NCBI GenBank assembly: GCA_965116925.1
Contig: OZ220744.1
Span: 352,001-416,000 of the forward strand
Direction: 5' to 3'
Source of the DNA: Candidatus Poribacteria bacterium
GTDB lineage: Bacteria > Poribacteria > WGA-4E > PCPOR2b
DNA: 64,000 nucleotides
Shown here: positions 48,708 through 50,793 of the stretch, one piece after another
Position numbering within the stretch: the first letter of the stretch is position 1
How the letters are laid out: each line of letters opens with the position of its first letter
The notes under the pieces: model-generated
The model's database searches: none
Seen by the model: the letters and a program-made list of their open reading frames with translations, nothing else
What the model was told of the DNA's origin: nothing
Program-made: the position numbers and the translations under genes

Positions 48708-48734
48708 TTAAGGGGTGAGTGCCCATTCCAGTTT
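48708..48734 (-). other. Displaced original 3' end of the ECF sigma gene; also the predicted TnpB guide
   Basis: AAA CTG GAA TGG GCA CTC ACC CCT TAA (KLEWALTP*) is in frame with ...AAT GAA at 50179 once the element is removed. Confidence 0.7.
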
Positions 48735-48960
48735 TTGACTGCTCCCAAAGTTGAAACATTGGGATTCTTAATAGACTGATTGGTAGACATTTTCTGTCTC
48801 CATGCTATTTTCTTGCTTCATCGATTCTTGCCTCATGTTGCAGGTGAGGACTTACAAAATCTCCACCCCGATAAATCGGGATCCTTGCGGACAAGCGTTT
48901 TACGTCTCCGTGTGTCCCACGGCGACGGTTCTGAGGTTTATCGCAGCGTTAAGGTCTCGG
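48715..48960 (-). ncRNA. Predicted TnpB omega/reRNA (scaffold plus guide)
   Basis: Overlaps the tnpB 3' end and runs through the right-end hairpin and TCAA; 5' boundary approximate. Confidence 0.65.
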
Positions 48961-50178
48961 TCTTGGGTATGCCCACAATCACTGCAATGGTAAGTCCTAT
49001 CCGATAGTGACAGGTCTTTGTCTTTTGCCCCACAAGCCGAGCACGTCTTACTCGACGGGTAGAAGGTGTCTGCTTCTACAATTTTAACGCCTAACCGTTC
49101 TGCTTTGTATGTGAGCATAGACAGAAAACTGGATAATGAAGCGTCCGATAATGCCTTTGCAAGTCTGTGGTTTTTTAACATACCGGCGACATTTAGCGAC
49201 TCAATCCCAATACGACTCGCACCATTGACGATAGCCGTTGTTGCTTGGTGTTGGGCATCTTGTCGGATACAGGTGATTCGGTAGTGCAGCTTGGTAATCT
49301 TGGCTTTCGTTTTACGCCAATTGCTGCTGCCTTTCTTTCGACGGCTTAACTGACGTTGCAGCCGTTTTAGCTTCCGCTCGTAACGCTTTAAGGCTTTGGG
49401 GTTTTCGTGATATACACCTTCGGACGTGACCGCTAAGTGATTGATACCTACATCAACACCAACAACAGGCAGATGTCCATTGGCAACAATAGTATCGTTA
49501 GCGAAAGTATCTACAGTGATAGAAGCGAACCAACGGTTAGCAGTTTTGGAGATTACAACTTTGACGATAGTGCCGAGGTGTCGAAGTGTTTGGAACATGC
49601 GAACCCAACCGATCTTAGGTAGTTTTATACGCTGTCCTTCGATAATAGTTGTGCCCCGACCTGCGTCTGCTTGGAAACTTTGACCCCGTGAACGCTTCTT
49701 GAACTTAGGAAACCGACTCTCACCTGCCTTCCAACGCTTAACAGCATTCTGAAAGTTGAAGTAAATCGCATTGTGAGCAGCACGTTGGTTTAACGCGTCA
49801 CACCACTCGTATTGCTCTCGCTTGACAGCATTGAAACGTTTGTTTAACTCTATATGACTGTGCCACTCACCATTGGCTAACCCTTCTTTGAAATCAGCAA
49901 GGACGTGGTTATAGGCAACACGAGCATAGCCACAATGCTGTGCAAATTGAGTAGCTTGGACGTTGTTCGGATTCAGTGCTATTTTGTGTGTTTTTAACAT
50001 TGGATGGTCTTGCTGTCTTGCGTGTCCATGTCAGTGGATTGTGGAAGACCCTACCGTGCGATAGGGCTGACATGCTCTCACCGAAAGACAAACCAAATAT
50101 ACCATTTTTTGCCAAGAAAACCAACTAAAATTACGCCGTCTGACCCAACGCTAAAGCATTGGGATTGTCTTTGGGATC
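48735..50178 (-). mobile_element. tnpB-only IS200/IS605-family element (IS1341-like)
   Basis: Left end CAAT-CCCAATGCTTTAGCGTTGGG; right end GAAT-CCCAATGTTTCAACTTTGGG-AGCAG-TCAA; no tnpA; no target duplication. Confidence 0.85.
48900..50000 (-). CDS. tnpB: RNA-guided endonuclease TnpB
   Basis: RuvC triad intact ('GVDVG', 'IESL', 'DRDLNAAINL'); zinc finger CSAC...CSDC. Confidence 0.95.
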   Translation of the reverse strand: MLKTHKIALNPNNVQATQFAQHCGYARVAYNHVLADFKEGLANGEWHSHIELNKRFNAVKREQYEWCDALNQRAAHNAIYFNFQNAVKRWKAGESRFPKFKKRSRGQSFQADAGRGTTIIEGQRIKLPKIGWVRMFQTLRHLGTIVKVVISKTANRWFASITVDTFANDTIVANGHLPVVGVDVGINHLAVTSEGVYHENPKALKRYERKLKRLQRQLSRRKKGSSNWRKTKAKITKLHYRITCIRQDAQHQATTAIVNGASRIGIESLNVAGMLKNHRLAKALSDASLSSFLSMLTYKAERLGVKIVEADTFYPSSKTCSACGAKDKDLSLSDRTYHCSDCGHTQDRDLNAAINLRTVAVGHTET

Positions 50179-50793
50179 TTCATTTTTCAGGTACGGAATC
50201 AGAAGGGTTCGGAGGCGTTTATGGGCATGGTGGAGATGCGCTTTGATTGTACCTTCAGATCGATCCAACTGTGCGGCAATCTCCTTCAATTGAAGTCCAT
50301 CGTGATAGCGCAGGTTAAAGACATGCTGCTGTTTGGGCGGGAGTTGCTGTACCGCTTGACCAATGATTTGTCCAAGCTCTTTCGTTTCTATCTGGTCTGG
50401 CGGCAATGGACTTACATCGTTAAAAGCTGCTTCATCGTTGCCCCCTGTGGGTAGGTCCTCAAACGACAGAGGCTGTCCCCGTTTTTGTTGGCGAATGAAG
50501 TCAATACACAGATTGACGGCAATCCGATAGAGCCAACTATAGAATGCCGATTGTCGTTTGAAGTGAGGCAAGGCGCGGAAGGCTTTGATAAAGATCTCTT
50601 GAGAAAGATCTTTCGCTGTTTCGGAGTTAGGCACATACTTATAAACCAAGTTATAGATCTTCCCCTGATATCTGGTGACTAGCTCGTTAAAAACTTCCTG
50701 TTCACCGTTTTGGAATCGCTCGACAAGCTCTTTTTCGTCGGCAGGCAGAGGTGTGGGTGTTGAAGATGCGAATAAAGTGTTGCGTTGAATCAC
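50131..50793 (-). CDS. ECF sigma factor whose last 15 aa are encoded by the IS left end
   Basis: AAGGAG RBS before GTG 50793; 'DLSQEIF...FYSWLYRIAVN'; 'LKEIAAQLDRSEGTIKAHL'. Confidence 0.9.
   Translation of the reverse strand: MIQRNTLFASSTPTPLPADEKELVERFQNGEQEVFNELVTRYQGKIYNLVYKYVPNSETAKDLSQEIFIKAFRALPHFKRQSAFYSWLYRIAVNLCIDFIRQQKRGQPLSFEDLPTGGNDEAAFNDVSPLPPDQIETKELGQIIGQAVQQLPPKQQHVFNLRYHDGLQLKEIAAQLDRSEGTIKAHLHHAHKRLRTLLIPYLKNEDPKDNPNALALGQTA

Follow-up and report, generated by a model that had tools for sequence, protein, structure and literature searches.

In IS608 of H. pylori, 4-nt DNA guides lie 5′ of the subterminal hairpins, the right end reads TCAA and insertion takes place without target duplication (PMC3201880). 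These features are shared by the element described here; the left target of IS608 is TTAC, with 19 nt from the cut to the hairpin foot, whereas the present element lies at TGAA, with 15 nt, and has no tnpA. TnpB proteins have joined Y1 and serine transposases in independent events, and the 3′ hairpin of the omega RNA is considered modular (PMC10691335; PMC9956272). By what means the TAM of TnpB stays in step with a transposase unrelated to it has been stated to be an open question (PMC10278001), and TnpB editors are held back by their narrow range of TAMs (PMC13639567). That TnpB can switch between transposase types is already known in general; the new part is the end swap within this lineage.

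The element was analysed in a window of 64,000 nt, the whole stretch of DNA under study, from a Candidatus Poribacteria genome that is 99% complete and consists of a single contig. It occupies 50178-48735 on the minus strand (1444 bp) and carries tnpB as its sole gene between IS200/IS605 ends. We hold with good confidence the proposal as a whole, namely that this is a non-autonomous IS200/IS605-ended element, that its RNA-guided TnpB reads TGAA and that the lineage crosses to IS607. Every feature listed in a preliminary description of the locus was found at its given position; the leader RNA, the broken sigma-factor tail and the IS607 kinship of TnpB had been overlooked. The features are as follows.

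50131..50856, minus strand: ECF sigma-factor gene (profile match; tail compared with congeners)
50179..50182, minus strand: target/TAM tetranucleotide TGAA, host DNA in the region of codons 224-226 of the sigma gene, kept in the congener empty site
50168..50178, minus strand: left spacer, 11 nt; a near-identical spacer occurs at an unrelated site in L033/L107
50167-50164, minus strand: left DNA guide CAAT, which also heads the autonomous tnpA+tnpB element L063
50163-50144, minus strand: left subterminal hairpin, 20 nt, the same in L063
50096..50124, minus strand: probable sigma70-type promoter (-35 at 50124-50119, extended -10 at 50104-50096), spacing conserved across copies
50007..50089, minus strand: structured leader RNA (covariation; model R1, 86 bits), somewhat decayed, with mismatches in this copy
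48900..50000, minus strand: tnpB, 366 aa, with HTH/WED-REC, RuvC D183/E267/D349 and zinc finger C320/C323/C339/C342
48735..48927, minus strand: predicted omega-RNA scaffold, 22 of 40 consensus pairs with compensatory changes
48867..48892, minus strand: 26-nt REP-like palindrome inside the omega-RNA core, shared with 14 of 73 relatives; the genome contains 40 occurrences of the palindrome's own core
48767-48764, minus strand: right DNA guide GAAT, predicted to pair with the terminal TCAA
48763-48744, minus strand: right subterminal hairpin
48738-48735, minus strand: terminal TCAA, predicted right cut site
48715..48734, minus strand: predicted RNA guide in the right flank, made up of sigma-gene 3′ sequence that the insertion displaced

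Orthologous loci were obtained via the upstream ECF sigma gene from 18 genomes of the same genus and from one of another family. The element is absent from the site in 18/18 of the former and also from the latter, and all 19 empty loci run from the TGAA position directly into the sequence right of the element. The element inserted 3′ of TGAA, without target duplication, in the tail of the ECF sigma gene. As AA is common to both sides of the junction, the empty sites alone leave an ambiguity of 0-2 nt, which is resolved by comparison with related right ends, 74 of 76 of which finish in the conserved TCAA/TCAG. The 1444-bp boundaries first proposed are borne out by the congener empty sites and by independent insertions; different boundaries in empty sites or other copies, the outcome named beforehand as telling against them, were not seen. 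The guide predicted from the right flank stood equally well, the congener empty sites reading TGAA joined to it. Of the public sequencing runs, two cover the element 10-40 times as deeply as its flanks and three have loose ends at 48733-48735; the empty joint is seen in one contig. In run X2 a contig crosses the right junction and includes 28 bases of the element, below the 31 needed for a second filled site.

Paired subterminal hairpins are present at both ends, with a right end GAAT...TCAA as in IS608, as had been described. The two hairpins form a 23-nt direct repeat, 83% identical, and fold as single-stranded DNA modestly better than shuffled sequences (z -1.6 and -2.3); proof of the ends therefore comes from comparison and not from the fold. 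The possibility that the 11-nt left spacer is captured flank was rejected because the same variant occurs at an unrelated site; the spacer is, on sequence comparison, a lineage variant.

The window genome holds two further full copies (90% and 83% identity), one copy without a left end, one internally deleted copy and three gene-less derivatives. With the window element included, six of seven left ends in the genome have TGAA 11 nt before the guide, so that the other copies follow TGAA as anticipated; the seventh has lost its spacer. A wider set of 80 related loci came from named genomes, all Candidatus Poribacteria, and a pattern search located the left end of 59; the left-end counts that follow leave out the other 21 and four mis-picked ends. 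A CAAT hairpin at C1:2707058, whose tail resembles a right end, was also set aside. Among left ends with guide CAAT (n=38), TGAA lies 10-13 nt upstream in 35, TGAC in one and neither in two, and guide CAAG is preceded by TGAC in 15 of 16. The chance expectation for a target match is ~5% over the 8 positions searched (frequency 0.0059). At the right end, GAAC goes with TCAG in 12/13 and GAAT with TCAA in 60/62. The guide-to-cut pairing rule of IS608 (PMC3201880), from which TGAA had been predicted for CAAT, agrees with these 35 of 38 left ends and with 18/18 empty sites, and it also predicts the CAAG/TGAC and GAAC/TCAG variants of the relatives.

The base 5′ of TGAA among the 35 insertions was A in 19, T in 10, C in 5 and G in one. 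Of the TAM (A)TGAA first put forward, TGAA stands as the insertion motif, and the fixed leading A gives way to a weak A/T preference. From the sequences we infer that the TAM of the nuclease itself is TGAA. A search of article texts, which took in few subscription papers, returned no TnpB with a TGAA or TTGAA TAM and no paper joining TnpB and Poribacteria.

The left guides of the window genome as a whole follow the same pattern: AAAA, AAAG, AAAC, AAAT and CAAT match the targets TTAT, TTAC, TTAG-like, TTAA and TGAA. Gene-less elements of ~410 bp with the same ends, at G000:C1:4280295, 5588952 and 2585583 in this genome, keep promoter, leader and omega scaffold; they might serve TnpB as trans guides. 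At 15456-15518 of the window (plus strand) lies a 63-bp insertion that follows TTAA and is absent in congeners; it is built from the start of a left end, a single hairpin and the TCAA of a right end. The genome has eight such solo-hairpin units, each preceded by TTAA and bearing guide AAAT. Most probably they were left behind, as solo LTRs are, when the DNA between repeated left and right hairpins was deleted. Their reading as mobile single-hairpin elements is unsupported, as full elements with near-identical left and right hairpins explain the solos by deletion.

All three RuvC residues reported earlier for the 366-aa TnpB are in place: D183/E267/D349 align with D191/E278/D361 of ISDra2. The protein scores 275 bits against a cut-off of 100 with the TnpB profile NF040570 and falls below the cut-offs of the IS200 and IS607 subfamily models; scores with NCBIfam IS200_TnpB and IS607_TnpB gave no separation of the two end contexts. 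Pfam domains HTH, OrfB and TNB were found, and dN/dS was 0.06-0.12 against 8/8 relatives tested. RuvC is, judged by its sequence, intact and under purifying selection. The TnpB domains, RuvC triad and zinc finger of an OMEGA TnpB nuclease are all present, and the protein is a candidate RNA-guided, TAM-dependent dsDNA nuclease. It lacks the marks of pro-Fanzor TnpBs (DPG at RuvC-I and a shifted RuvC-II glutamate), having DVG and the canonical E267. The AlphaFold model is weak (pTM 0.44), too poor for mapping TAM contacts; its top fold match is ISFba1 (PDB 8IAZ).

ISDra2 TnpB with its omega RNA (PDB 8BF8/8EXA/8H1J; PMC10097598) has the same domain order, D/E/D triad and CCCC zinc finger, and its pseudoknot involves positions -5..-3, as is predicted for the window element. 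The window TnpB differs in being ~30% identical, in its structured 5′ leader and in its TAM-contact residues. The TAM of ISDra2 is TTGAT, that predicted here TGAA; K76/F77/Q80 of ISDra2 are Q/R/H in the window protein, though TAM positions -4..-2 are equal.

The predicted omega RNA, structured over the right end with a terminal pseudoknot, conforms to the OMEGA type on covariation. Its stem-1 loop GAC (48916-48914) pairs with GTC at -5..-3 (48739-48737), in the same register as in ISDra2. In hairpin-ended elements a GAC or GGC loop pairs with GTC by at least 3 bp in 74/77 loci, a few of whose ends are mis-picked. In IS607 elements the loop/end pairs are GTTG/CAAC, GCTG/CAGC or GCTC/GAGC in 20/20. 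As a cross control, hairpin-type loops were set against IS607 ends, and pairing dropped clearly to 1.5 bp; the reverse control was weak, IS607 loops reaching 2.9 bp with hairpin-type ends against 3.0-3.95 for own pairs. Rfam, searched with two other right ends, returned HgcC alone, at 19 bits against a cut-off of 50.

Residues of TnpB that track target and end type were compared, L332 being left out of the counts. Residue 53 is K/R in 18/18 IS607 proteins, C in 15/15 TGAC proteins and N/Q/V/S/T in 32/32 TGAA proteins; residue 113 is N in 18/18 IS607 proteins and S/A/P in the other 47. L133 and L157, TGAA proteins inside the TGAC grade, are also without C53. Residue 53 aligns with S56 of ISDra2, a contact of TAM -1, and residue 113 lies one place from T123, a contact of TAM -4. 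The residue classes are groups of kin that amount to ~3-4 events of independent origin, and the TGAC clade is also tracked by other positions; read with that limit, the correlation supports, short of establishing, a TGAA TAM for the window TnpB. With each change of ends the omega pseudoknot would have been adjusted to match the new right end, and the presumed TAM-reading residues 53, 73-76 and 113 would have been re-tuned; if so, the window protein should read TGAA.

It is unlikely, in our judgement, that the nuclease is out of step with its element, either reading another or longer TAM or being dead in this copy through the omega-RNA insert and the decayed leader. That reading could draw on the TAM-contact residues unlike those of ISDra2, the 26-nt insert in the scaffold, the leader mismatches, the finding of TAM activity in 27/59 orthologs in one screen (PMC10278001), and the lack of TnpA in the genome, hence little current need for cutting. 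However, dN/dS does not exceed 0.12, residues 53 and 113 and the pseudoknot shift with end type, and the same insert is carried by 14/73 relatives at different sites. A working nuclease matched to TGAA is preferred.

Upstream of tnpB, between the probable promoter and the start codon, lies the leader of ~85 nt, which precedes most tnpB clades of the genome. A consensus promoter scan did not list the inferred sigma70-type promoter. The leader comprises a closing stem, two stacked stems and a pseudoknot between bulge and loop, and its closing strand is repeated in tandem over the ribosome-binding region. Across 32 copies, pairing holds in 87% of cells and double changes occur in 25/28 pairs. For the pseudoknot 97% of cells pair in 16 copies of equal length, the value being 59% when two bulge lengths are mixed; pairing of the bulge with its own loop reaches 5 bp in 23/27, compared with 27/702 cross pairs. 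The second copy of the closing strand stands just before the start codon even where the letters wholly differ, which suggests a translation switch with two registers. We lean slightly towards the view that the leader limits translation, its 5′ strand pairing with either of two repeats, one of them over the ribosome-binding region.

The leader model matches 37 sites in the window genome and was found in 28/61 phylum genomes. It is present in both tnpB-only IS607-ended elements, and no match was obtained in 10 canonical tnpA loci or in 8 complete IS607 loci. Four close relatives are without the leader, so it is dispensable for spread. Rfam gave no match for the leader, nor any in the window, and a literature search, again taking in few subscription papers, found no paper on such a leader. 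Stand-alone leader folds, well conserved and having neither tnpB nor start codon, were also seen: L103 (G000:C1:3117513, minus strand), L190, L191 and L196, and L098 and L206. Four stand-alone copies sit behind a -24/-12 motif, which we take to be sigma54-like. The stand-alone form is possibly a host small RNA related to the tnpB leader.

The kinship of this TnpB extends to IS607-type elements. Its nearest annotated plasmid relatives (40-44% identity) often overlap IS607 transposases, in a listing that favours overlapping genes and therefore gives no more than a lead. IS607 TnpA was matched in 34/81 genomes of the phylum and in none of the 13 of this family, the window genome and 12 others. 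Of 25 IS607 loci examined, 8 carry a TnpB 52-55% identical to the window TnpB over its length; the TnpB of L063 is ~30% identical, over RuvC only. IS607 copies from 7 genomes begin with GGG and end in CGG in 20/20 cases, and share the 5′ ~100 nt of the omega scaffold with the window element, diverging only beyond. The TAM of ISXfa1 is GGG (bioRxiv 10.1101/2023.08.09.552727) and that of CboIStron TGGG (PMC10690162). Two tnpB-only elements with IS607-type right ends were found in this genus, L313 (73% identity) and L307 (70%). L313 ends in CAACGG and has an atypical left end; 11/11 empty sites place its insertion after TGGGG or a one-base variant. The sequence comparison shows that this TnpB lineage and the 5′ omega core are also found, at 52-73% identity, in IS607-type elements inserting after GGG.

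Three further observations concern these relatives. The left part of L313 (G004) gives an in-frame ATG, on the opposite strand, to the rest of the interrupted host gene. Beside the right end of L307 lies a dispersed repeat of ~140 bp (L307:1306-1450), with dozens of sites per congener genome. L322 (G011) has a TnpB 74% identical, different Y1 ends (guide GAAA, TCAT upstream) and its own recognition-helix residues.

A tree of 32 proteins, built without the TAM-contact columns, requires 3-4 changes of end type, at least two of them forced by strong branches, with L313 nested among hairpin-ended proteins. It rejects a single hairpin-ended clade (AU p 1e-104), with groups set after earlier trees; in a smaller set without L313, L155 and L342 such a clade was not rejected (AU p 0.13). 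The swaps may have run in either direction, and recombination among copies could distort the trees. The comparison shows that end type changed several times in the lineage.

By the tests applied, the element itself is a non-autonomous, IS1341-type member with IS200/IS605 ends. It has subterminal hairpins with 4-nt DNA guides at both ends, a fixed tetranucleotide target without duplication, and cut sites that follow guide pairing. It is not an autonomous IS605, as tnpA is absent from the 1444 bp. Nor is it an IS607 element, for which a serine recombinase, GG-core boundaries, short direct repeats and no hairpin ends were the criteria: its ends are hairpins, GGG/CGG boundaries are missing and a serine recombinase is absent; TnpB and the omega core alone are in common.

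The element had been called complete, which holds for its ends and tnpB; it does not hold for autonomy, since no intact cognate TnpA was found in the window genome. A search there for a TnpA acting in trans gave five Y1_Tnp matches, all partial and the best one frameshifted, and they are at most ~31% identical to canonical TnpAs of congeners. The copy is therefore non-autonomous and presently stranded. Of 10 canonical tnpA loci examined in congeners, two, L063 and L061, carry a CAAT left end after TGAA; L063 has tnpA and tnpB with the same guide and hairpin as the window element. By analogy with IS608, a Y1 TnpA acting in trans would have inserted the element by peel-and-paste, reading TGAA and TCAA via the DNA guides CAAT and GAAT; the likely enzyme would be of the L063/L061 type, now missing from the genome. 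The window genome as a whole has at least 26 tnpB loci in five clades, yet intact canonical TnpA is absent from it. A frameshifted Y1 transposase in this genome, L001 (G000:C1:6296309-6296569), is flanked by clustered REP-like repeats.

The insertion replaced the conserved 8-residue sigma tail by 15 residues read from the left end of the element, and the original sigma stop now lies at 48710-48708, right of the element. The predicted guide matches the intact sigma tail, and 4/18 congener alleles have TGAA with at least 14 matching seed bases. No other chromosomal site with TGAA and a 12-nt seed match was found in the genome, even with one mismatch. The left-end promoter would make one RNA comprising leader, tnpB, omega scaffold and flank, as judged from ISDra2 and G. 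stearothermophilus. TnpB with the omega RNA could then cut element-free alleles having TGAA and the guide match, upon which the element would be copied back or home. The match to empty sigma alleles makes such homing plausible, by analogy with described systems (bioRxiv 10.1101/2023.03.14.532601; PMC10690162).

It seems very improbable that the element is IStron-like, splicing out of the sigma mRNA to restore the tail with the leader as ribozyme. The insertion does lie within a conserved coding tail, the left end does contain structured RNA, and a contig of an RNA run (contigs only, giving no gauge of expression) departs from the stretch at 50179. Such a contig is, however, explained by an element-free allele in the sample, and an allele of this kind is present in another run. 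The leader is ~85 nt with few invariant bases, and no group I intron or ribozyme match was obtained: Rfam gave none at E up to 1 over 48400-50400, and there is no room for a group I intron within the element. Nuclease-dead Cas12f-sigmaE systems offer a model for a regulatory pair of a sigma factor and a TnpB-like protein. That the present genes form such a domesticated pair is scarcely credible and already refuted by the empty sites, for although tnpB lies directly behind the ECF sigma gene on the same strand and the element overlaps its last eight codons, the linkage is missing in 18/18 congeners, RuvC is intact and other copies sit at unrelated sites.

By itself this is an ordinary intact tnpB element; its value is in the surrounding family, whose proteins, 69-95% identical, cover two transposition chemistries and four inferred targets, with specific residues and RNA pairs shifting alongside. 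Such a family bears on whether a 366-aa nuclease can be re-targeted by few substitutions. A broader reading, which we offer tentatively at a little under an even chance, is that in Poribacteria leader RNA, tnpB and 5′ omega core form a cassette, freely exchanged by recombination between IS200/IS605 and IS607 ends as well as between Y1 ends that differ in target (TGAA, TGAC, TCAT, GGG). After each move its pseudoknot would be rebuilt by 3-4 loop changes, and a few residues near 53, 73-76 and 113 would switch its TAM. Control would lie with a translational switch RNA, as yet uncatalogued, that is found on its own as a host RNA too. If true, this would provide a natural near-isogenic map of TnpB TAM change.

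Among known systems, the ISGst elements and PATEs (bioRxiv 10.1101/2023.03.14.532601) are tnpB-only families that share ends and one TnpA in trans; their TAM covaries with the DNA guide and gene-less derivatives exist. In the present case, by comparison, the TnpB lineage crosses into IS607 ends and the TnpA is gone from the genome. In their passages on transposase pairing, PMC10691335 and PMC9956272 concern large clades, and near-identical pairs with matched changes of TAM, pseudoknot and residues do not figure there. The IS607 TnpBs of Poribacteria share 52-55% identity and the 5′ omega core with the window TnpB.
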